Shown: positions 43,738-57,690 of the stretch, in pieces
How the letters are laid out: each line of letters starts with the position of its first letter
Numbering within the stretch: position 1 is the first letter of the stretch
Assembly (NCBI GenBank): GCA_963555995.3
Contig: OY821641.1
Span: 311,399-375,398 of the forward strand
Reading direction: 5' to 3'
DNA length: 64,000 nucleotides
From: Vicinamibacteria bacterium
GTDB lineage: Bacteria > Acidobacteriota > Vicinamibacteria > Marinacidobacterales > Marinacidobacteraceae
Made by a program: the position numbers and the translations under genes
Notes under the pieces: model-generated
The model's database searches: none
Seen by the model: only the letters and a program-made list of their open reading frames with translations
Told to the model about the DNA's origin: nothing

Positions 43738-43908
43738 TCGACTGGACCACAGAGTTCGGCATCGCGGGCGGCCTGCCGGGACTCGTGCCGATTCCGTGTT
43801 CCAGTGCGATTTGCGTGTCCGGACAAGATGGTGGACACTCCACCGGACAATCTGCGGGACAATACTCAGGACAAACTACGGCCCAACGTTGGCCCGGAGG
43901 GCAGCGCC

Positions 43909-45123
43909 ATGACGACTTCGGGAGAGCGCGAGTACCAGAGGACCCACCCCTGGATCCGCTTCCAGCTCGACCTCCGGAAGGCCGATCCCGGACTCTGGGT
44001 CCTGCTCGGCCAGATCGTCGCCTTTGGCGAGTTCGTGTCCCGGGCGCTGCTGCCTCCGAAGGTGGCTGCGAACCTGGCGCGCCTCTACCTCGCCAAGGGC
44101 GTTCAGGCGACGGTCGCGATCGAGGGCAACACGCTCAGCGAGGAGGAGGTCCTCGCGCAGATTGATGACAGGCTCGAGCTTCCCGCTTCCAGGGAATACC
44201 TGGGCCGGGAAGTCGGGAATGTGGTGGATGCGGCCAACGACATCGTCACGCGCATCCACGGCGGGAACGCCCCGCGGCTCACCGCGGCGTTCGTGGCCGA
44301 CTGCAACGGCCGCATCCTCACCGGGCTTGCCGAAGTGCTCGGGGACGAGGTGGAGCCCGGGCGCATCCGCAAGCACTCCGTCGGCGTAGGCCGCTACCGG
44401 GGGGCGCCCGCCGAGGACTGCGAGTACCTGCTGGACCAACTGGGCGAGTGGTTGGAGGCGATTCCTCAGCTCACGGTCCTCGCCACCGAATCGGACAACC
44501 GCGTCGCAACCGGGGTCCTGCGCGCCGTGCTGGCCCATCTCTACCTTGCCTGGATCCACCCTTTCGGGGATGGCAACGGGAGAACCGCCCGGCTCGTCGA
44601 GCTGTCCCTGCTGGCGCGCGTCCTGCCGTTCCCGTCGACGCAGCTTCTGAGTAACCACTACCACGACACCCGCGCTGCCTACTACCGCGAACTCGACCGC
44701 GCCGGCCAGGCGAACCAGCGGCGCGGCGATGCGATCGGCTTCCTGCGCTACGCCCTCCAGGGACTCTCCGACGGACTCCGGGAGCAGTGCCGGGAGGTGA
44801 CCCGCATTCATCACCGGATCGCTTGGCGTGACTTCGTGTATCGCCGGTTCGACGAGGAAGAGACGTCCTCGGCGGTGCTTCGCCGCCGGCAGCTTCTCCT
44901 CGAGTTGCCGCCCCCCTCGACCCCGGTGTCCAGGGAGCGGATCCCGATCCACAGTCTGAAGCTCGCTCATTCCTATTCCGGCCTGAATCCCAAGACGCTG
45001 GATCGGGATCTGAACTGGTTGATCGAGAAGGGGCTCGTGGTCCGCTCCCCGGACGGCTATGCCGCCAACCGCGGTCTCATGCAGGCGTTCGTGATGCCGG
45101 GTGCACCGGAGGGCGGTACGTAA
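43909..45123 (+). CDS. Fic family protein (class II, intramolecular inhibitory motif)
   Basis: Fic motif 'HPFGDGNGRTAR' and the upstream inhibitory motif 'TVAIEGN' ([ST]xxxE[GN]). The start could also be 43804. Confidence 0.85.
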   Translation: MTTSGEREYQRTHPWIRFQLDLRKADPGLWVLLGQIVAFGEFVSRALLPPKVAANLARLYLAKGVQATVAIEGNTLSEEEVLAQIDDRLELPASREYLGREVGNVVDAANDIVTRIHGGNAPRLTAAFVADCNGRILTGLAEVLGDEVEPGRIRKHSVGVGRYRGAPAEDCEYLLDQLGEWLEAIPQLTVLATESDNRVATGVLRAVLAHLYLAWIHPFGDGNGRTARLVELSLLARVLPFPSTQLLSNHYHDTRAAYYRELDRAGQANQRRGDAIGFLRYALQGLSDGLREQCREVTRIHHRIAWRDFVYRRFDEEETSSAVLRRRQLLLELPPPSTPVSRERIPIHSLKLAHSYSGLNPKTLDRDLNWLIEKGLVVRSPDGYAANRGLMQAFVMPGAPEGGT

Positions 45124-45185: not shown

Positions 45186-45395
45186 CACAGGTTCCGCCGC
45201 CGCCGTATCTCGTCCTGACCAGGACCTCCGCAGGTAGGACGACAGCACCGGATCAACCAGCGTCCAGCGCCCGTCGTCGTTCCGGTCCAACATATGTTGG
45301 AACAAGGATCATTGGTCCAACAGATATGGAAGCCACGTCTTCCTCGGGGCGGTGCGCCCGGGGCACGGGGGCGCCATGCCTGCCGGTTGCCCGTC
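45186..45395 (-). pseudogene. internally deleted remnant of the orf110-end/ATPase_2 locus found intact at 56.5-57.8 kb
   Basis: 45223..45286 aligns with 56528..56591 (ATPase 3' end; encodes '[21 protein letters not shown]' versus '[21 protein letters not shown]'). 45287..about 45395 aligns with 57682..about 57790 (ATPase start and upstream region). About 1.09 kb of coding sequence is missing. Confidence 0.8.
45287..45300. promoter_or_regulatory. perfect 14-bp palindrome 'ccaacatatgttgg' (imperfect counterpart 'ccaatacatattgg' at 57682..57695)
   Basis: Read directly. Conserved in both copies of the ATPase upstream region, and followed by 'ttggaacaaggatcattgg(t/tt)c(c)aa'. Confidence 0.35.
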
Positions 45396-45537
45396 CTCGA
45401 TCCGCGGGAAGTCGCCGGGCAGCACGTCCTCGAGCCGGTTGGTCCGCTGCCAGACCGGGAACGCCCCGTGCGCCCTCAGGTCCCGCCGCCGCGACCGCGA
45501 TCGCGCATGGGTGACAATTGCCCGCGGAACCGAGGCA

Positions 45538-47169
45538 ATGTCACCCGCACGACCGAAGAAGGCGAAGCGCGCGGCCAGGACTGCCGGCGGGAGCGCCACC
45601 ACCGGCTACGAGGCCGAACTCTGGGCGATGGCCGACGCGCTGCGCGGCAGCATGGACGCGGCCGAATACAAGCACGTCGTCCTCGGGCTCATCTTCCTGA
45701 AGTACATCTCGGACGCCTTCGAGGAGACGTACGCCCGCCTGGAGGCCGAGAGGGACGAGGGCGCGGACCCGGAAGACCCGGACGAGTACCGCGCTGACAA
45801 CGTCTTCTGGGTGCCCCCGGAGGCCCGCTGGAACCGCCTCCAGGCGCAGGCGAAGCAGGCCACGGTCGGCCGGCTCGTGGACGACGCGATGGCGGGTATC
45901 GAGCGCGACAACCCGGCCCTCAGGGAGGTGCTGCCCAAGGAGTACGCGCGCCCGGCGCTCGACAAGCAGCGGCTCGGCCAGCTCATGGATCTGGTCAGCA
46001 ACATCCGGGTCGGAGACAGGGAAGCCCGCTCCCGGGATGTCCTCGGCCGGGTGTACGAGTACTTCCTCTCCGAGTTCGCGAACGCCGAGGGCAAGAAGGG
46101 CGGCGAGTTCTACACGCCGCGCTGCGTCGTCCGGCTGCTCGTCGAGATGATCGAGCCGTACCAGGGCCGGGTGTACGACCCGTGCTGCGGCTCCTCCGGG
46201 ATGTTCGTCCAGTCCGTCGAGTTCATCGAGGCGCACGCGAGCGGCAACGGGAACGCCCGGACCACGCCCTCGGGGGCCAAGGCGGACATCTCGATCTACG
46301 GTCAGGAGTCCAACTACACGACCTGGCGGCTCGCCCGGATGAACCTGGCCATCCGCGGCATTGGTGGCCAGATCGCCCAGGGCGACACCTTCCACAACGA
46401 CCGGCATCCCGACCTGCGAGCCGACTTCATCCTGGCGAACCCGCCGTTCAACGTGTCCGACTGGGGAGGCGACCGCCTCACCGAGGACCCGCGGTGGGAA
46501 TACGGCGTGCCGCCGAAGGGCAACGCGAACTTCGCGTGGGTGCAGCACATCGTCCACCACCTGGCGCCGACAGGTGTCGCCGGGTTCGTCCTCGCCAACG
46601 GGTCCATGTCCTCGCAGCAGTCCGGGGAAGGGGAGATCCGCAAGAACCTGATCGAAGCGGGTCTCGTGGACTGCATGGTCGCCCTGCCGGGGCAGCTCTT
46701 CTACTCGACCCAGATCCCGGCGTGCCTCTGGTTCCTGTCCCGGCGGCGGTTCGGCGGCGGCCTGCGCGACCGGCGCGGCGAGGTGTTGTTCGTGGACGCC
46801 CGGCGGCTCGGCCGCATGGTGACCCGCCGCCACCGCGAACTGACGGACGCGGAGATCACCCGGATCGCGGACACCTACCACGCCTGGCGCGGCGAGGAAG
46901 GAACGGGCGACTACGAGGACGTCCCGGGCTTCTGCCGGAGCGCCCCGCTCGACGAGGTGCGGAAGCACGGGTACGTGCTGACGCCTGGACGGTACGTGGG
47001 CGCGGAGCCGGAAGAGGACGACGGGGAACCGTTCGAGGCGAAGATGAAGCGGCTCGCCGCGGAGTGGCGGGAACAGCAGGCCGAGGCGGCGCGGCTCGAC
47101 GCGGAGATCGCGGCCAATCTCGCAGCGCTGGGTTTCGGGGACGGTGGTGGCGGCAATTCAGCGACTTGA
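45538..47169 (+). CDS. hsdM: Type I restriction-modification system methyltransferase subunit HsdM
   Basis: HsdM N-terminal block '[32 protein letters not shown]', AdoMet motif '[12 protein letters not shown]', catalytic 'ILANPPFN'. Confidence 0.92.
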
Positions 47170-47430
47170 GATCACAATCCGTGATGTCAAGTCGGGACGG
47201 GCGCCCGTCTCTCCCGCTCCCATTGCTGAACCGGGTGTCTTGATGTTCTCCGGAGTGCTGCGCAGTCCGCGCGCTGTTACGGTTCAGAAGATGCGGAAGG
47301 CGACCCGATTCCACCTCGACAGCTCTGCGGGATTCGGGGAGCTGGTTTCGGGAACGGTCGTCCAGTGTGGGGCTGGTGGTGGCCGCCCCGGCATACAGAC
47401 GCGCCCGATCCCACCGGGGAGTCGCCCGCG

Positions 47431-48729
47431 ATGACGTTCGACGCGGCAGACGTTCGGGAACGAATCCGCCTCGGCGAGGACGCGCGCTGGGAGCTCAAGG
47501 AGGTGGTGTTTCGAGGGAACCGCCTCGTCGGTCCCCGGCCTGACGCGCTTGCGGATGAGTTGGCCGCCTTCGCCAACGGTCGTGGCGGCATTTTGCTCCT
47601 CGGCGTGACCGAGGGTGGCGAGGTCCAGGGAGTCACCCGTACCCAACTCGATGAGCTTGACCGTAACGTCGTGGACCTCTGCCACAACCGGATCACGCCC
47701 CCTATCGAGGTCGATATCCGCCGTTTCCTCATCGAACCCGGGAAACCGGTCCTCTCCGTCGAGGTCGAACCGGGCTACGCCCAGCACGACAGCCCCGGCG
47801 GCGCGTACCAGCGCTTCGGCGGCAGCAAACGGCGGATGTCGCCGGATGAACGGCGTCGGCTCGCCGAGATCCGAAATCAGGCCCCCTTTCGGTGGTTCGA
47901 CAAGCAACCGGTGCCAGGCACCGGACTCGGCAGTCTCGACGACGCGCTTTGGGAACCGATGCTGGACGCTCAGGGACGGCTCGATCCCAGAAGAGGCCTT
48001 GCGAGACTGGCTCTCCTGGCGTCCGAAGCCGAGGCGGCGGCTGAAGCGACCGTCGCCGGCGTTTTGCTGTGCAGCCGCGCGCCGGAGCGATGGCTGCCAA
48101 ACGCCTGCATCACGGCGACTCACTATCGGGGCAAGGACCGCAGTTCCCCGCAGTTGGACGCGCGGGTCATCACGGGGCCGCTCCACCGGCAGGTCGCCGA
48201 CGCCATGACCTTCGTCGAGCGGAACATGCAGGTCGATGCCCACAAGACGTCAGCCCGGATGGATCAGCCCGAATACAGCCTCGAAGCGGTGTTCGAGGCG
48301 CTGGTGAACGCCGTGGCGCACCGCGACTACACGATCCGGGAAAGCCCAATCCGGCTTTCGATGTTCTCGGATCGGTTGGAGATTGCTACTCCGGGTCGGC
48401 TGCCGGGCAGTCTGACCGCCGATACGATGGGCAGCCGTCAGGCAACACGGAATGAAGCCATCGTTTCCATATTGACCGACATCGCGCTGGATGGAGTTTC
48501 CCGCTCGGGCAGCCCAGGTTTCTTGATGACGCGGCGCGGCGTCGGTATTGCCACTATCGCCCATAGAACCCGACGGCTCACGGGCCGGTCGCCCGTATAT
48601 GACGTGTCGGACGATGCCGTTACCCTCACGATTCCGGCGTCTCACCGCACAATGCCGAAGCTCTTCGCGAGAGCTTCCCGGCAAGGACGGGCCGCCGGCG
48701 GAACCGCCGATGCGAGGTTGGCAGGATGA
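47431..48729 (+). CDS. AlbA_2 (Schlafen-like) plus HATPase_c_4 domain protein ('RecG-like' putative DNA-binding/ATPase regulator)
   Basis: N-terminus 'GEDARWELKEVVF...ELAAFANGRGGILLLGV' (AlbA_2). C-terminus 'EALVNAVAHRDY...IRLSMFSDRLEIATPGRLPG' (HATPase_c_4). Its stop overlaps the next start (ATGA). Confidence 0.8.
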   Translation: MTFDAADVRERIRLGEDARWELKEVVFRGNRLVGPRPDALADELAAFANGRGGILLLGVTEGGEVQGVTRTQLDELDRNVVDLCHNRITPPIEVDIRRFLIEPGKPVLSVEVEPGYAQHDSPGGAYQRFGGSKRRMSPDERRRLAEIRNQAPFRWFDKQPVPGTGLGSLDDALWEPMLDAQGRLDPRRGLARLALLASEAEAAAEATVAGVLLCSRAPERWLPNACITATHYRGKDRSSPQLDARVITGPLHRQVADAMTFVERNMQVDAHKTSARMDQPEYSLEAVFEALVNAVAHRDYTIRESPIRLSMFSDRLEIATPGRLPGSLTADTMGSRQATRNEAIVSILTDIALDGVSRSGSPGFLMTRRGVGIATIAHRTRRLTGRSPVYDVSDDAVTLTIPASHRTMPKLFARASRQGRAAGGTADARLAG

Positions 48730-49211
48730 TCGCCGAAAAGGAACCGAGAATTGACTACTCCAGGTTCCAACTCTCCCTCAGACGGCTGGTGGAACAACAT
48801 GACAACCTCTTGGCCGCCGACGATGCGCTTTCGCGGCTGGACCGCGAGGCGCGTACCGAATCGGTGATTCGGCGTTTCAAGATGTGCTACGACTGCCTGT
48901 GGAAGGTCTTGAAGCGCTACCTCATCCAGAATCTCGGACTGGCTGATCCGCCAAATAGTCCTGTCCCGCTCTTCCGTCTGGCCGCGGAGAACGGTGTGTT
49001 CGATTCACCCGTTGAGCAGTGGATGCGGTACGTGGCCGCGCGAGTTGACACTGCCCACCACCACGACGGGGAGAAGGCGAAGCGCTGCCTCGATACCGTG
49101 CCCGAGTTTCTGGACGACGCCATCCATCTCTATGGGACGATAACGGGTGAACCATGGGGCAGCAATCCTGCCGCGCCGTTTGCCGCCGGTAGTGCACCAT
49201 GCTGGACCTGA
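48726..49211 (+). CDS. HEPN domain protein, HI0074 (nucleotidyltransferase substrate-binding) family, paralogue 1
   Basis: 'VIRRFKMCYDCLWKVLKRYL' and an R-x4-H motif 'RVDTAHHHD'. No Tyr two residues after the His. Confidence 0.8.
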   Translation: MIAEKEPRIDYSRFQLSLRRLVEQHDNLLAADDALSRLDREARTESVIRRFKMCYDCLWKVLKRYLIQNLGLADPPNSPVPLFRLAAENGVFDSPVEQWMRYVAARVDTAHHHDGEKAKRCLDTVPEFLDDAIHLYGTITGEPWGSNPAAPFAAGSAPCWT

Positions 49212-49621
49212 CTCCGCTCGACAACGCCATAGCCCAACTCGAAGAGGCGCTCGATTTCCACGGGTCTGACCTTGCTGCCGAGCAGCCGCGACTCCGGCTC
49301 CAGTTGCGCGCGGCCGCGATTCAGGCGTTCGAATTCACGTACGAGCTCTCCTTCAAGATGCTTGGCCGGTATCTGGAGCAAGTTATGCCGAATCCAGCGG
49401 CAGTGGACAAGATGCCGTTCAAGGACCTGATCCGGGAAGCGCTGGGTCGCGGGCTGCTCGCCGCGGACGTAGATGCGTGGGAGCGGTTCCGGAAGTTTCG
49501 GGGAACGACCAGCCACACCTACGACGCCGGAAAGGCACAGGCCATCTTCGAAGGCATTCCGGAGTTTCTGGACGAAGTCCGGTATCTCCGGAAGCGGCTC
49601 CGCACCAACGTGGAAGGGTGA
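49199..49621 (+). CDS. HEPN domain protein, HI0074 family, paralogue 2
   Basis: 'AIQAFEFTYELSFKMLGRYL' and the canonical 'RGTTSHTYD' (R-x4-H-x-Y). It overlaps paralogue 1 by 13 nt. Confidence 0.85.
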   Translation: MLDLTPLDNAIAQLEEALDFHGSDLAAEQPRLRLQLRAAAIQAFEFTYELSFKMLGRYLEQVMPNPAAVDKMPFKDLIREALGRGLLAADVDAWERFRKFRGTTSHTYDAGKAQAIFEGIPEFLDEVRYLRKRLRTNVEG

Positions 49622-51255
49622 TGGCGCCCGCGATTGATCTTCGTCCGGATCACCGGAAGATCGTCGAGGACATCCTGCGCGACCACCTCCCGGATGGCGC
49701 CAAGGTCTGGGTCTTCGGAAGTCGCGCCGAGTGGACCACCAAGGATTCTTCCGACCTGGACCTCGCGCTCGAAGGTGACGGGCCGCTCGATCGCCGGATC
49801 GTGATGGCGCTCGAACTGGCTTTCGAGGAGTCGTTCCTCCCGTTCCGGGTGGACGTGGTGGATCTGGAGCGGGTGCAGGAGCGGTTTAGAGAGATCGTGC
49901 TCCGAAGCCGCGTTGGCCTGTCTTTGCCGAGGGATGGTGAGGCAACGTATACGAATCGAGGCGAGATGGGGTTCTCAGATGCCTTCCTAGTGAATCCAAG
50001 AGTCAAGCTGGAACGAGATGTGGAGTATCCGTTCGTCGAAATGAGTGATCTGATGCCGGGTCTGCGTGCGGCTGTGTCAACGCGGCGTCGTCGGTTTCGC
50101 GGTGGCGGTTCTCGCTTCAGAGCCGGTGACACTTTGATGGCGCGAATAACGCCATGTCTCGAAAACGGCAAGATTGCCCGTTACGTGGCAACACGGAAAG
50201 ACGACGTAGGACATGGTTCGACCGAATTCATTGTCATTCGAGGCCGCCCCGATGTAACGGATACCGAGTTTGCCTTCTATGTGACGCGTTCAGATTCAGT
50301 CCGGGAATACGCGATCTCTCAGATGAGTGGCACATCGGGCCGGCAGCGCGTCCCAGTGGACGCGTTGAACACTCTGATGGTTTCTGTACCAAGCCTTCCT
50401 GAGCAGCGCGCAATCGCGAGCGTTCTCGGGACGCTCGATGACCGCATCGAGCTGAACCGGCGGATGAACGAGATATTGGACGCGATGGCGCGGGCGCTCT
50501 TCAAGTCCTGGTTCGTGGACTTCGATCCTGTACGGTCAAAAATGGAAGGCCGCGACGCGGGTCTGCCGTCCGAGATCGCCGACTTGTTCCCGGACCGGCT
50601 GGTGGAGTCGGAGTTGGGCGAGATTCCCGAGGGATGGGCCGTCATGCCGCTTGCAGAGGTCATGGAAATCAACCCCGTCCGCACACTCAGTAGGGGTCAC
50701 ATCGCGCCCTACCTCGATATGGCAAACATGCCGAGAACGGGTCATGTTCCTCTCAGTATCCGAATGCGGAACTTCGGCTCGGGGACCCGATTTGTGAACG
50801 GCGACACGCTCATGGCGCGGATTACGCCATGCCTTGAGCATGGGAAGACAGCCTATGTGGATTTCCTCCAACACGGTGAAGTCGGATGGGGTTCGACTGA
50901 GTTCATTGTGCTGCGACCGAGGCTGCCAATCCCCGGCGAATATGCCTACTGTCTTGCGAGAAGTTCTCGTCTTCGCGAACACGCGATCGCGAGCATGACG
51001 GGGAGCAGTGGGCGACAGCGAGTTCCGCCGGCCGCGCTTTCCCAGTTCCTGGTGTGTGTGGCAACTCCGGGGATCTATCGCGCGTTTGGCGATTCGGTGA
51101 GCGCGTTGTTCGCCCGTGTGCGAGAAGGGCAGCGTCGTTCGCGTGCCGCGACTTCCCTCCGCGACATGCTCCTGCCCAAGCTCGTGTCCGGCGAAGTCCG
51201 CGTGCCCTCTACTCTGGTCGGGCGCTACAACGACCCCGCAGCGCCTGCGACCTGA
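49621..51255 (+). CDS. hsdS: fusion protein: minimal nucleotidyltransferase (MNT) domain plus Type I specificity subunit HsdS
   Basis: Residues 1-100 carry pol-beta NTase motifs 'VFGSRAEWTTKDSSDLDLAL' and 'FRVDVVDL'. The rest is a two-TRD HsdS ('GDTLMARITPCLENGK', central 'LPEQRAIASVLGTLDDRIELNRRMNEILDAMARALFKSWFVDF', 'GDTLMARITPCLEHGK', 'LRDMLLPKLVSGEV'). There is no stop between the domains. The ATG overlaps the HEPN2 stop (TGATG). Confidence 0.8.
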   Translation: MAPAIDLRPDHRKIVEDILRDHLPDGAKVWVFGSRAEWTTKDSSDLDLALEGDGPLDRRIVMALELAFEESFLPFRVDVVDLERVQERFREIVLRSRVGLSLPRDGEATYTNRGEMGFSDAFLVNPRVKLERDVEYPFVEMSDLMPGLRAAVSTRRRRFRGGGSRFRAGDTLMARITPCLENGKIARYVATRKDDVGHGSTEFIVIRGRPDVTDTEFAFYVTRSDSVREYAISQMSGTSGRQRVPVDALNTLMVSVPSLPEQRAIASVLGTLDDRIELNRRMNEILDAMARALFKSWFVDFDPVRSKMEGRDAGLPSEIADLFPDRLVESELGEIPEGWAVMPLAEVMEINPVRTLSRGHIAPYLDMANMPRTGHVPLSIRMRNFGSGTRFVNGDTLMARITPCLEHGKTAYVDFLQHGEVGWGSTEFIVLRPRLPIPGEYAYCLARSSRLREHAIASMTGSSGRQRVPPAALSQFLVCVATPGIYRAFGDSVSALFARVREGQRRSRAATSLRDMLLPKLVSGEVRVPSTLVGRYNDPAAPAT

Positions 51256-51455: not shown

Positions 51456-52978
51456 TTAACAGCCTGTGGTGAAACTCCGCTGGGCGGGATTGAGTGCGCT
51501 GGCGGGGCTTCGTAGAATTTTCGCATGGCTATGGGACGTCGCGGGACGCGGCGGCAAGGGTTGTGGATTGCGACCGGGGCGCTGCCTCGGAGCAAGGGGG
51601 ATCCGTTTTACGAGCGTCTGAATAAGGTTCTCGGGGGGGATCGCTTTGACGAGTATGTGGAGGAGCGGTGTGAGCGTCACTACGCGCCGGACGGTCGTCC
51701 TGGGCTTGCGCCTGGGCGGTATTTCCGCTGCCTTCTGATCGGGTATTTCGAGGGTCTGGACTCGGAGCGATTGATCGCGTGGCGGGTGAACGACTCCCGC
51801 AGCCTGTTGCGGTTCCTGGGTTACGGGCCGGCGGACAGCGGGCCGGATCATTCGACGATTTCGCGGACGCGCCGTCGGGTGAGTGAGGAGACGCACGCGG
51901 AGGTGTTCGGCTGGGTTGTGGAGCGGGTGAAGCGAGCGGGGCTTCTGCGGGGGGATGCGCTGGGGGTGGATACGACGACGCTGATGGCGAACGCCTCGAT
52001 GCGGAAGATCGTGCGACGGGACAGCGGGGAGGGCTACCGGGAGTATGTGAGGAGGTTGATGGAGGAGTCGGGGATCGAGGCTCCGACGTTGGAGGAGTTG
52101 GCGCGCTACGACCGGACGCGGAAGAAGCGGTTGTCGAACGGCGACTGGGCGCATCCGGTGGACCCCGAGGCCCGCATCAGTCGGCTGAAGGATGGCCGGA
52201 CGCGGATGGGGTACAAGGCGGAGCACGCCGTGGACCTGGCGAGTGGCGCGATCGCGGCGGTGACGGTCCAACCCGGGGACCGCGGGGACACCAAGACCCT
52301 GCCGCAGACCCTGGACGAAGCGGAGAAGCATGTGGGGGCCGGGGCGGCGGAGGCTGAAACGCCGGGGAAGCCAACGGCTTGCCGGAAGGAGGGGAAGCCC
52401 CGGTCCTTGGTGTGTGACAAGGGGTATCACAGCGATGCGGTGATCGAGCAGACGCGGGAGCGTGGTTACCGTTCGTACATCGCGGAGCCGAAGCGCGGGC
52501 GTCGTCGCTGGCGGGGTCGAGAGTCCCTGCGTCGCGCGACATACGGCAACCGTCGGCGGGTTCGTGGAAATCGCGGCACCCGGCTGCGAAGACGGCGCCA
52601 CGAACTGACGGAGCGTTCCTTCGCGCACTGCTACGAGACCGGCGGGATGCGCCGGGTGTGGTTGCGGGGCAGTGGGAACATTCGAAAACGTCTGCTGATC
52701 CACACCGCTGGCTTCAATCTGTCGCTGCTCATGCGGCGCCTGACCGGGATCGGGAAACCAAAGGGCCTCCAGAACCGGAACATGGAGGCCATGCAGCGCC
52801 ACTTGTCGCCCGGACGGGCCTCCCTGTGGCGCATCGTGCACCTCTGGCGCCGTTGTCCGACCGCGATCCTCGTTCTCTTGACCGAACCCCCGTCCTGGCC
52901 GTGTCTCCACGAGCAGAAGCTCGACGCTCATTCCCGACGGAATCCGCCGTGAACGCCACTTTCACCACAGGCTGTTAA
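51456..52978 (+). mobile_element. IS5-superfamily (IS1182-like) insertion sequence, 1,523 bp
   Basis: Perfect 19-bp terminal inverted repeats: 'ttaacagcctgtggtgaaa' (51456..51474) and 'tttcaccacaggctgttaa' (52960..52978). The outermost TTAA could instead be a target duplication. One transposase ORF. Confidence 0.85.
51525..52952 (+). CDS. IS5/IS1182-family DDE transposase
   Basis: InsH-type N-terminal domain ('FRCLLIGYFEGLDSERLIAWRVNDSRSLLRFLGY..HSTISRTRRR'). DDE region ('LGVDTTTLMANAS', 'CDKGYHS', 'ERSFAH...RGSGNIRKRLLIHTAGFNL'). Confidence 0.85.
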   Translation: MAMGRRGTRRQGLWIATGALPRSKGDPFYERLNKVLGGDRFDEYVEERCERHYAPDGRPGLAPGRYFRCLLIGYFEGLDSERLIAWRVNDSRSLLRFLGYGPADSGPDHSTISRTRRRVSEETHAEVFGWVVERVKRAGLLRGDALGVDTTTLMANASMRKIVRRDSGEGYREYVRRLMEESGIEAPTLEELARYDRTRKKRLSNGDWAHPVDPEARISRLKDGRTRMGYKAEHAVDLASGAIAAVTVQPGDRGDTKTLPQTLDEAEKHVGAGAAEAETPGKPTACRKEGKPRSLVCDKGYHSDAVIEQTRERGYRSYIAEPKRGRRRWRGRESLRRATYGNRRRVRGNRGTRLRRRRHELTERSFAHCYETGGMRRVWLRGSGNIRKRLLIHTAGFNLSLLMRRLTGIGKPKGLQNRNMEAMQRHLSPGRASLWRIVHLWRRCPTAILVLLTEPPSWPCLHEQKLDAHSRRNPP

Positions 52979-53012: not shown

Positions 53013-56141
<3,129 letters not shown>

Positions 56142-56194: not shown

Positions 56195-56527
56195 ATGACT
56201 CATAAACCCGATGCCCTTGAACGAGATTTCGACGCCGCGATGATGCAGATCTACTACCGTGCGAAGGACGAGGTGGGATACAACGCGAACCGGTTTCTGC
56301 AAATGCTGCACGACTACGGCGGCGTTGAAACCGCCAGGCGCCTGCTACCGGCCATGTCCGACGGATTCACTGCACTCTACGAACACTGTCGTCTCGACCT
56401 GACCGTCGAGTACCTCGTGCTGCAACCCCGATGGCATCAACTCTTCACGGATGAAGAGCGAGACACGGCGCGTCGCCGTCTCAAGTGCTGCGGGATGGAG
56501 GTTCCGGCCGTATCTCGTTCGGACTAA
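56195..56527 (+). CDS. hypothetical protein (110 aa) downstream of hsdR
   Basis: Protein-like composition ('RFLQMLHDYGGVETARRLL', 'LTVEYLVLQPRWHQLFTDEE'), 53 nt after hsdR. No family recognised. Confidence 0.6.
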   Translation: MTHKPDALERDFDAAMMQIYYRAKDEVGYNANRFLQMLHDYGGVETARRLLPAMSDGFTALYEHCRLDLTVEYLVLQPRWHQLFTDEERDTARRRLKCCGMEVPAVSRSD

Positions 56528-57690
56528 GACCTCCGGAGGTAGGACGCCATCACCGGATCAACCAGCGTCCAGCGGCCGTCGTCATTCCGGTGGATCAGGT
56601 CGTCCTGTTCGAGTACCGCACGGGCGTGATTCCCGGTGGATGCGGGCAGCCTGAGAGTGGACAGGAACCGGTGGGAGCCCGGGTGTTCCACTCCGTCCTC
56701 GGACTGGGCGATGGCCTTGAGCATGGCGCGTTGGCTGGCCGGACGACGGAGCAGGCGGCCGGCGGCGACGCGTCCATCTTCGTCCACGATTCGGGACCAA
56801 TGCGCTTCCACGGATTCGATGCCGGGCGAGCGCTGACCGCCCCAGAGCCGGGCGCAGAGCGCATTCACATAGTAGGGATGCCGTGCCGTGAGCCTGAGGA
56901 CTCGAGCGATCACGTCGTCGGCCACCGGCTGGCCCCAGCGTGTCCGGCTCGCTTCCTGGATGAAGGCCCGGTAGTCAGCCTCCCCGATGCGGTCGAGGGT
57001 GATCTTGCGGCACAGGCGGTACAACGGCCGCTCCTCATCCTCGAACATCCCGGCCAGCAGGCGCCGCTGGCTCCCGGAGAAGAGATAGGTGACATTCCCT
57101 GACCGTTCGACCGCGTGCCGGATGGCGCCTTCGAGGCTGCGCTGCGCGGTCTTGGGGGAAAGCTGCGACAACTGCTGAAACTCGTCGAGCACCAGGACCA
57201 CCCGGCGCCCGACCATCCCGGCGGCCCGGTCGAGGCCGAGCAGCATTTCGGTGATTCCCCGTGTCGGAGGACCCGGCGGCGTGAGGCGGATCTTCAGACC
57301 CATCGCACCGACGGAGAATTCCGGAGAGAGCGCGCGGAACGCGTCGGTGAGCGTTTGACTCGCTTTTCTGCCCTTTGGTGCGATCCGGGCGCTCACGCCT
57401 TCAACTGCCGTTCGCAACCGTCCTTCGAGGTCTTGGCCGTCGTGGGCGACCAGCAGGTCAACGGCGGTGGCGGCGATCTCCGTTCCAGCGAGGTCCTGCA
57501 GCACCTGTTCGATGAGGCTGGTCTTGCCCGTCCGGCGGTGGCCCCAGAGCCAGGTGTGCGTCCCGGAAGCGATGTTGTGGCTGAGTTCGGCGCGCTCCTC
57601 CGTGCGGTTGCAGTGGGCGGCTCCCGTCGCGATTCCGAGCGGGAAGAGGTCCGTTCCGGCTGCCATGTGAGGGATTTTATTCCAATACAT
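56524..57690 (-). CDS. ATPase_2 (archaeal-ATPase/ORC-like) family P-loop NTPase with C-terminal wHTH-like region
   Basis: Walker A 'GHRRTGKTSL', Walker B 'VVLVLDEFQ', C-terminus '[24 protein letters not shown]'. The start may instead be the Met at 57666. Confidence 0.8.
   Translation of the reverse strand: MYWNKIPHMAAGTDLFPLGIATGAAHCNRTEERAELSHNIASGTHTWLWGHRRTGKTSLIEQVLQDLAGTEIAATAVDLLVAHDGQDLEGRLRTAVEGVSARIAPKGRKASQTLTDAFRALSPEFSVGAMGLKIRLTPPGPPTRGITEMLLGLDRAAGMVGRRVVLVLDEFQQLSQLSPKTAQRSLEGAIRHAVERSGNVTYLFSGSQRRLLAGMFEDEERPLYRLCRKITLDRIGEADYRAFIQEASRTRWGQPVADDVIARVLRLTARHPYYVNALCARLWGGQRSPGIESVEAHWSRIVDEDGRVAAGRLLRRPASQRAMLKAIAQSEDGVEHPGSHRFLSTLRLPASTGNHARAVLEQDDLIHRNDDGRWTLVDPVMASYLRRS

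Follow-up and report, generated by a model that had tools for sequence, protein, structure and literature searches.

Why would a single antitoxin domain stand behind two toxin genes, of which only one carries the residue that such an antitoxin modifies? This question is raised by a type I restriction-modification (R-M) operon in a stretch of 64,000 nucleotides (nt) from a Vicinamibacteria bacterium (contig OY821641.1, positions 311,399 to 375,398, assembly GCA_963555995.3), hereafter called the window. The genes of the operon, in this order, are hsdM, an AlbA_2 gene, HEPN1, HEPN2, MNT::hsdS, an insertion sequence (IS) element, and hsdR; they and the motifs described below all lie on the + strand. 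HEPN1 and HEPN2 are tandem genes of the HI0074 type, and only HEPN2 keeps the tyrosine of the RX4HXY motif. The initial annotation regarded this difference as a possible feature of design. Comparison with the relatives of the locus leads to another reading, which is held here with moderate confidence: HEPN2 and the MNT::HsdS fusion protein would form a working type VII pair, and HEPN1 would be a decaying, probably inactive leftover of a cassette swap. The evolutionary part of this reading taken alone, namely orphaning of a toxin, replacement of a cassette, and private loss of the tyrosine, appears likely.

HEPN1 (161 amino acids; 48726..49211) matches PF08780 (NTase_sub_bind) with 60.4 bits, above the Pfam cut-off of 31.8 bits, but TIGR01987 (HI0074) with only 38.9 bits, the NCBIfam cut-off being 55.8 bits; in other words, it is a member of the Pfam family, yet outside the threshold of the NCBIfam subfamily. 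HEPN2 (140 amino acids; 49199..49621) is a canonical HI0074-type HEPN protein. It scores 101.8 bits for PF08780 and 76.6 bits for TIGR01987, and matches HI0074 (1JOG) over its full length with E=7e-22. The identity between HEPN1 and HEPN2 is 32%. Both the open reading frames (ORFs) and the PF08780 matches agree with the tandem arrangement first annotated, that is, two HI0074-type genes overlapping by 13 nt with a single MNT domain after them. The whole genome contains no third PF08780 gene, and no PADLOC model matched HEPN1 or HEPN2. The helical-bundle fold of HEPN proteins is indicated for HEPN2 by the sequence match to 1JOG, and for HEPN1 by an AlphaFold2 model having five helices and a predicted local distance difference test (pLDDT) score of 85.8. 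The top Foldseek matches of this model were 8YUF, 1WWP, 1WTY, 8XDJ, and 1JOG, with target-normalised template modelling (TM) scores of 0.69-0.83. The family profile of HEPN1 also matches 1JOG (E=3e-11).

The R-x4-H residues are present in both ORFs, as R106 and H111 in HEPN1 and as R101 and H106 in HEPN2. The motif readings given initially are correct: RVDTAHHHD in HEPN1 (R106-V-D-T-A-H111-H112-H113-D114; 49041..49067, with the codons cac cac cac at 49056-49064) and RGTTSHTYD in HEPN2 (R101-x4-H106-T-Y108-D; 49499..49525). In Shewanella oneidensis HepT, the AMPylated residue is Y104, which is the tyrosine of RX4HXY (PMC7641770). In the PF08780-like HEPN toxin of Legionella pneumophila, the tyrosine of this motif is likewise AMPylated, at Y105 (PMC11586414). 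The HEPN2 motif is aligned to RNITSHTYD of HI0074 and RNQTSHTYN of the L. pneumophila toxin, which places Tyr108 in the column of the modified tyrosine; this residue is the predicted AMP acceptor. The same column is occupied in HEPN1 by H113. The family profile of HEPN1, which reads RVDTAHDYD here, was aligned to the same segment of HI0074, and H113 is also located in the same loop of the predicted fold as the acceptor tyrosine, residues 109-114 forming the loop between helices 4 and 5. This means that AMPylation of a tyrosine at this site is impossible in HEPN1. The suggestion that HEPN1 might not be neutralisable in this manner is thus upheld by the alignment and the predicted fold, and HEPN1 is not filed here as a neutralisable type VII toxin, since the acceptor tyrosine present in HEPN2 (Y108) is replaced by histidine (H113).

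How old this replacement is can be seen from the relatives. At least 120 homologues were listed for each query, with identities of 49-72% to HEPN1 and 55-82% to HEPN2; the HEPN1-type set analysed consists of the 113 of 120 listed homologues that have a normal length of 125-165 amino acids. The consensus of the HEPN1-type family is R-x4-H-D-Y-D, or R..T.HDY(D/S) overall. RX4HXY is kept in 99 of the 113 HEPN1-type homologues and in 118 of the 120 listed HEPN2-type homologues. In the HEPN1-type columns (n=113), tyrosine is found in 106 at the position of H113 and aspartate in 94 at the position of H112. The acceptor tyrosine is also kept in all 80 HEPN1-type loci found in a Joint Genome Institute (JGI) metagenome scan that used the HEPN1 alignment as the query. 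Even in another tandem locus, L024, the HEPN1 protein (P0005) has HDYD, so that both HEPN tyrosines are retained there.

The 90% cluster of the window HEPN1 contains two other sequences, P0361 and P0362. P0361 is 89% identical to HEPN1 and has the same N-terminal extension and the same length of 161 amino acids, with a tail ending in ...PCWT, which implies the same overlap with the start of HEPN2. Its motif is RVDTAHNYG, with the tyrosine present. P0362, from a second assembly of about 3.7 Mb, differs from HEPN1 at two amino acids and also has HHH, which argues against a sequencing error. The change from the consensus aspartate and tyrosine to HHH (CAC CAC CAC) corresponds to two point changes. 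Since P0361 has the tail of HEPN1 and still keeps the tyrosine, loss of the stop codon seems to be the older event, and the tyrosine-to-histidine change a strain-level one.

The antitoxin provides a second line of evidence. The MNT::HsdS fusion (49621..51255) is a type I specificity subunit of 544 amino acids with two target recognition domains, and matches PF18765, PF01909, PF01420, and NF047752. Its ATG at 49621 shares the A with the TGA stop codon of HEPN2. The MNT antitoxin domain comprises approximately residues 1-110 (49621-49950) and has an intact G33-S34-x10-D45-L-D47 motif; the MNT adjacent to HEPN2 therefore has the GSX10DXD signature of type VII systems, here in fusion with HsdS. 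Its score for MntA_antitoxin (NF047752) is 38 bits, under the equivalog cut-off of 60, and Polbeta (PF18765) is also matched. The HsdS part is recognised by PADLOC as Specificity_I, and the model PDLC03138 already spans the MNT part. The fusion is widespread, with homologues in 480 protein clusters. Among the loci collected, the fusion was observed in L016, L018-L021, L026, L028-L030, L117-L121, L123, and 46 of L031-L110. In the window the HEPN genes lie 5' of MNT, which is opposite to the usual MNT-HEPN order.

With a scoring profile built from relatives of the window MNT, the window MNT itself scored 178 bits. MNT domains adjacent to HEPN2-type genes and those of tandem loci with unbroken frames scored 168-179 bits, and that of the fragmentary locus L025 scored 131 bits. 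Beside HEPN1-type genes the scores were 68-87 bits, and 50-90 bits in the JGI set. The identities follow the same division: the window MNT is 72-83% identical to the partners of HEPN2 (74-83% for L024, L026, L028, and L121) and 39-44% identical to the partners of HEPN1 (39-43% for loci without HEPN2, which are the type A described below). These scores and identities mean that HEPN and MNT co-vary as two clades. The MNT of the tandem loci is of the HEPN2-partner kind, and HEPN1 is consequently left without a cognate antitoxin. As judged from its sequence, HEPN2 together with the MNT domain fits the definition of an HI0074-kind type VII HEPN/MNT system; both the acceptor tyrosine and a cognate MNT are lacking in HEPN1. 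The IQAFEF and RX4HXY motifs of HEPN2 are both intact and its terminal branch in the HEPN2 tree is short (0.07). HEPN2 is likely to be a working toxin.

The arrangement of the relatives shows where the two genes normally reside. HEPN1 and HEPN2 belong, by sequence, to two distinct and well-populated clades. Architecture A, hsdM-HEPN1type-MNT::hsdS-hsdR, was found in L016, L018-L021, and L123, and in L022 the HEPN1-type gene is accompanied by a stand-alone MNT. Architecture B, hsdM-HEPN2type-MNT::hsdS-hsdR, was found in L026, L028-30, L117, L118, L121, and three genomes of the same genus. Architecture C, the tandem, is represented by the window and two metagenome contigs, L024 with both HEPN genes intact and the fragmentary L025. 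This gene-neighbourhood survey is of the loci named here; several close homologues (P0002, P0004, P0006, P0007, P0019, P0027, P0036, and P0129) fall outside it. None of the 80 JGI HEPN1-type loci has tandem HEPN genes. MNT lies directly downstream in 77 of them, and in the other three the contig ends about 200 nt or less from HEPN1; the MNT is fused to HsdS in 46 of the 80 and solo in 19, the rest being split or cut by contig ends. A search of genome contigs with the single HEPN1 sequence gave one locus, and a phylum-wide search with HEPN2 in 400 genomes gave five matches outside its own genome, none closely related. It should be mentioned that some loci (L042, 3630-4867; L059, 583-1393; L047, 3-386) have, just upstream of HEPN1-MNT::HsdS, an additional HEPN-MNT pair that is complete and more distant. 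Such stacking of whole HEPN-MNT pairs in type A loci could be a source of tandem forms.

The R-M genes surrounding these different cassettes are closely similar. Across architectures A, B, and C, hsdM is 82-96% and hsdR 87-94% identical, whereas MNT is only 39-44% identical between A and B/C. L016 (A) and L028 (B) share 96% identity in hsdM and 94% in hsdR, and the window is 86-90% identical to either.

In the B loci whose HEPN2 is closest to that of the window (L026, L028, L117, L121, L122, L011, and L012), a relic of HEPN1 is found between the stop codon of hsdM and HEPN2. This relic is a mini-ORF of eight codons, consisting of the start codon and the last seven codons of HEPN1 (760-786 in L026; 4553-4578 in L028). 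It reads MATGESWD-stop in L026, as compared with the HEPN1 consensus end ...TMTGE.W.-stop, and decayed versions of it are seen in L028, L117, and L121. Compared at a fixed position, the L026 relic and the 3' end of L025 HEPN1 have 20 of 24 bases in common, for which the estimated chance is about 1e-7 or less. The 22-nt spacer downstream of the relic is also homologous to the spacer of the tandem locus L025. The ATG of the relic still overlaps the hsdM stop codon, and translational coupling may therefore be preserved. No relic was found in L118, a more distant B locus (HEPN2 66% identical) in which hsdM overlaps HEPN2 directly.

In the HEPN2 tree, a clade with 100/100 support comprises the window as the first branch, L024, L025, and all relic-bearing B loci. 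The same-genus genomes have the relic-bearing B form as well. Their nucleotide homology to the window (about 86%) is confined to 45.5-47.14, 49.197-50.64, and 53.03-56.14 kb, so that the window DNA extra to these loci consists of the AlbA_2 gene with HEPN1 (a skip of 47139-49196) and the IS element. A relic of the antitoxin MNT1 was sought in the spacer of 36-40 nt that separates HEPN1 from HEPN2. The sequence CCGCCG, common to the window, L016, and L123 at a similar offset, is too short as evidence, and the L024 spacer showed a weak likeness to L123.

HEPN1 of the window has also changed outside the RX4H motif. Its orthologues end after ...GE.W.-stop, whereas HEPN1 continues for 16 residues and a stop codon (49161..49211), extending 13 nt into HEPN2. 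Residues 150-161 of this tail are predicted to be disordered (pLDDT <50). The tail arose by loss of the ancestral stop codon. The window has TGG GGC AGC in place of the TGG xxx TAG of relatives, and the loss was probably caused by deletion of 1 nt from TAG. In addition, HEPN1 has R50 and K53 (VIRRFKM; 48873..48884) at positions where the family mostly has glutamine and glutamate (IQRFET), equivalent to the Mg-site residues Q44 and E47 of the L. pneumophila toxin. The Q/E pair is found in 79 of the 113 HEPN1-type members and R/K in 18. RX4HXY is short of R, H, or Y in 5 of the 18 R/K members and in 4 of the 79 Q/E members (Fisher p=0.01, uncorrected for phylogeny). R/K at this site was considered as proof of inactivity and rejected, the full RX4HXY motif being kept in 13 of the 18 R/K members.

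Among the 50 columns with a conservation of 90% or more, HEPN1 deviates from the family only at Y113H. The idea that HEPN1 is globally degenerate was accordingly discarded, since 49 of these 50 columns are kept; the signal of decay lies only in the placement of recent substitutions. Of the 12 differences in the core between the window HEPN1 and P0361, 7 hit positions with a conservation of 80% or more. This is 58%, compared with a neutral expectation of 54%, which is the share of such positions in the core, and with a baseline from 80 equally close HEPN1-type pairs of 17% on average and 42% at maximum (binomial p=0.0015). For the HEPN1 proteins of the L024/L025 clade, the trend was the same, with a value of 34-42%; pairs of matched divergence gave a baseline of 17% and a 99th percentile of 34%. 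In the HEPN2 control, the window compared with its clade mates gave 18-34%, the baseline being 16% with a 5-95% range of 4-31%. The terminal branch of HEPN1 (0.44) is the longest in its clade, and the tree median is 0.13. On these comparisons, the evolution of HEPN1 in the window lineage looks neutral, as if the protein were unconstrained.

The following course of events would account for these observations, the direction of the events and the inactivity of HEPN1 being inferred from comparison of sequences. HEPN2 would be an RNase toxin neutralised by AMPylation of Tyr108 through the MNT domain of MNT::HsdS, and the fusion would tie both the supply and the location of the antitoxin to the R-M complex. 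HEPN1 belongs to the other HEPN/MNT clade, which in other loci fills this slot by itself, as hsdM-HEPN1-MNT1::hsdS. In such a type A locus, a HEPN2-MNT2 unit might have displaced MNT1, giving the tandem. The replacement of MNT1 would probably have occurred by recombination between two allelic R-M cassettes, leaving HEPN1 without its own antitoxin. Most descendants would then have removed HEPN1 by an in-frame deletion, of which the start codon and the last seven codons remain. In the window lineage, the frame of HEPN1 seems to have stayed open but drifted, with loss of the stop codon and of the Q/E pair. The last step there would be the very recent loss of Asp-Tyr in RX4H-D-Y. Since the loss of the tyrosine is recent and private and HEPN1 is redundant, the missing residue is better seen as a symptom of decay than as the design of a heterodimer.

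Several observations weigh against this reading of HEPN1. Its frame is complete, R106 and H111 are kept, it overlaps its neighbours on both sides, which points to translational coupling, and its HEPN fold is predicted with confidence. Loss of the tyrosine alone is no proof of inactivity, because the Y104A mutant of S. oneidensis HepT is still toxic (PMC7641770); nor does R/K at the Q/E site alone kill function, as the R/K members that keep RX4HXY indicate. The test for relaxed constraint uses few substitutions (12), and its pairs are not independent of one another. At least three or four lineages (window/P0362, P0361, L024, and L025), with proteins about 70% identical, still have the tandem, and this persistence could reflect selection. 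Furthermore, the window is placed apart from L024/L025 in the HEPN1 tree, where the subclade sister to the L024/L025 group includes the type A locus L123; the tandem might therefore have arisen more than once, or have moved by recombination in the conserved flanks.

These observations leave room for other explanations, of which independent activity of HEPN1 is not very likely. HEPN1 would then be a toxin restrained by other means, such as binding of MNT, auto-inhibitory tetramers, or low expression, and would supply the R-M island with another RNase, differing in specificity. The open frame, the intact R-x4-H, and the toxicity of HepT Y104A in S. oneidensis are in line with this. Tetramerisation also controls the L. 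pneumophila HEPN toxin (PMC11586414), and for crenarchaeal loci that combine several HEPN and MNT genes, a wider target range has been proposed (PMC3710099). However, the MNT of this locus belongs to the non-cognate clade and shares 39-44% identity with the partners of HEPN1, and Q50R and E53K remove residues that are catalytic in the nearest solved relative (PMC11586414). The neutral-looking substitutions and the loss of the gene in sister loci also argue against an independent toxin. An artefact, in which sequencing or assembly errors had produced the HHH codons and the read-through tail in a normal HDY gene, is very improbable. The assembly consists of two contigs from an uncultured lineage, and a single-base indel beside a run of G could yield the tail; but the identical 161-residue protein comes from two contigs, the second assembly of about 3.7 Mb has HHH too, P0361 has the tail with substitutions of its own, and HHH requires two substitutions of D and Y rather than an indel.

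The proposal made initially, an asymmetric HEPN1/HEPN2 heterodimer with one AMPylatable tyrosine (Y108) or HEPN1 as a regulatory or decoy subunit, is considered unlikely. HEPN toxins are dimers in which the RX4H loops face a shared cleft (PMC11586414), HEPN1 retains R106, H111, the fold, and 49 of the 50 highly conserved columns, and the overlapping, translationally coupled genes occur as tandem loci in several lineages, all of which would suit such a pairing. A special form of it, quite unlikely in our estimation, is a half-locked toxin: the non-AMPylatable HEPN1 would heteromerise with HEPN2, and MNT would silence only one side of the cleft. Such a toxin would fire faster once phage anti-restriction disables HsdS-MNT, and the loss of the tyrosine would then be adaptive. 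The asymmetry is not conserved, however: the tyrosine is kept in 99 of 113 homologues and in 80 of 80 loci, and both tyrosines are held by L024 and by the lineage of the 89%-identical P0361. Identity between the two HEPN proteins is only 32%, and either clade is normally found alone; the tandem is rare, sister loci have lost HEPN1 and retained HEPN2-MNT::HsdS, and recent substitutions of HEPN1 hit conserved columns as often as expected under neutrality. Asymmetry as a design feature is thus not supported by the relatives, and the leftover of a cassette swap is preferred as the explanation of HEPN1.

The remaining genes of the locus belong to a complete type I R-M system, with hsdM, hsdS, and hsdR in one locus and the IS element parting hsdS from hsdR. 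hsdM (45352..47169; PF02384 N6_Mtase, 355 bits, and HsdM_N) encodes the methyltransferase and is 82-87% identical to hsdM of L016, L024, and L028; its real start is likely Met63, at about 45538. hsdR (53013..56141) encodes the restriction subunit, with the domains HSDR_N, SWI2_SNF2, and T1RH-like_C and a PADLOC REase_I match of 1103 bits; it is 89-91% identical to hsdR of L016, L024, L026, and L028. Between hsdM and HEPN1 there is a Schlafen-like accessory gene with AlbA_2 and HATPase_c_4 domains (47365..48729; PF04326 and PF13749), whose stop codon overlaps the HEPN1 start (ATGA). The tandem locus L024 lacks this gene, and nothing corresponding to its DNA is present in the same-genus loci, in which homology ends at 47138 and restarts at 49197. 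It showed weak PADLOC matches to regions of pAgo-associated proteins.

The IS element (51456..52978) encodes a DDE transposase (DUF772 and DDE_Tnp_1) and has perfect 19-nt terminal inverted repeats (TTAACAGCCTGTGGTGAAA). The same-genus loci have no matching DNA at that place. By its position, the element may have uncoupled hsdR from the operon. In related operons, the slot between hsdS and hsdR contains accessory genes with DUF4357, DUF1828/1829, DUF3644, Abi_C, or Fic domains (L018, 7006-8753; L019, 7030-8100; L021, 7018-7725; L121, 6116-6382). Here the R-M backbone has a second site of variation. The homology of the R-M region to the same-genus genomes ends at the borders of hsdM and hsdR, in keeping with a mobile R-M island. 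Outside these borders, hsdM is directly preceded by a Fic-domain gene (43804-45123), and hsdR is followed by a convergent AAA/ATPase_2 gene (56524-57690).

Comparison with known systems places HEPN2 close to the HI0073/HI0074 pair of Haemophilus influenzae (1JOG), with which it shares the RX4HXY and IQ.FEF motifs. The fold of HI0074 is also similar to the HEPN1 model (TM score of 0.82 normalised to the target), although HEPN1 differs from HI0074 in being below the TIGR01987 cut-off and without the tyrosine. Unlike HI0073/HI0074, the present locus has HEPN 5' of MNT, an MNT-HsdS fusion in a type I R-M operon, and two HEPN genes for one MNT. Of the PF08780-type toxins that have been characterised, the nearest is that of the L. 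pneumophila HEPN-MNT system (8XDJ, 8XEH, and 8YUF; PMC11586414). There, Y105 is poly-AMPylated by MNT, and the Mg-site residues Q44 and E47 are catalytic (PMC11586414). These two residues are in the IQAFEF helix and are present in HEPN2, whereas HEPN1 has R/K there and histidine in place of the tyrosine. The L. pneumophila system also differs from the window in consisting of two stand-alone genes, one for HEPN and one for an unfused MNT. The same chemistry is expected as in HepT/MntA of S. oneidensis (PMC7641770), in which an MNT protein with GSX10DXD adds AMP to the tyrosine of RX4HXY and the Y104A mutant of HepT is poorly neutralised (PMC7641770). That system, however, has a DUF86-type HEPN (PF01934), a 6:2 hetero-octamer, MNT 5' of HEPN, and no link to R-M.

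A functional parallel for the genomic context may be PrrC, whose HEPN RNase gene lies in the EcoprrI type Ic hsdMSR operon; PrrC is silenced by the R-M proteins and provides a further, second line of defence (PMC3710099). In a comparable way, silencing of the toxin would be coupled to the R-M complex by the MNT::HsdS fusion. PrrC differs in being a fusion of an ABC-ATPase and HEPN that is silenced by protein contact and activated by the Stp peptide of T4, and it involves no MNT, AMPylation, or tandem HEPN. Both HEPN genes lying within R-M operons and clusters that combine several HEPN and MNT genes are known from earlier work, as is a general link between HEPN and R-M systems (PMC3710099). In the literature searched, no description was found of the MNT::HsdS fusion, the HEPN-5'-of-MNT order, or the tandem intermediate with its relic, nor any paper on tandem HI0074-type HEPN genes.

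What the locus means for this family can be stated as follows. The MNT::HsdS fusion suggests that silencing of the toxin is physically tied to the R-M complex, as an analogue of PrrC-EcoprrI. Motif differences between adjacent paralogues may reflect decay rather than design, which calls for caution in annotation. A toxin deprived of its antitoxin is not necessarily lethal; its fate here seems to have been drift, and then deletion. Within one R-M operon, three states of cassette replacement can be recognised, read here as ancestral, intermediate, and final: HEPN1-MNT1::HsdS, the tandem with MNT2::HsdS, and the relic followed by HEPN2-MNT2::HsdS. The main interest of the locus thus lies in the documented turnover of cassettes and the orphaning of a toxin that accompanies it.

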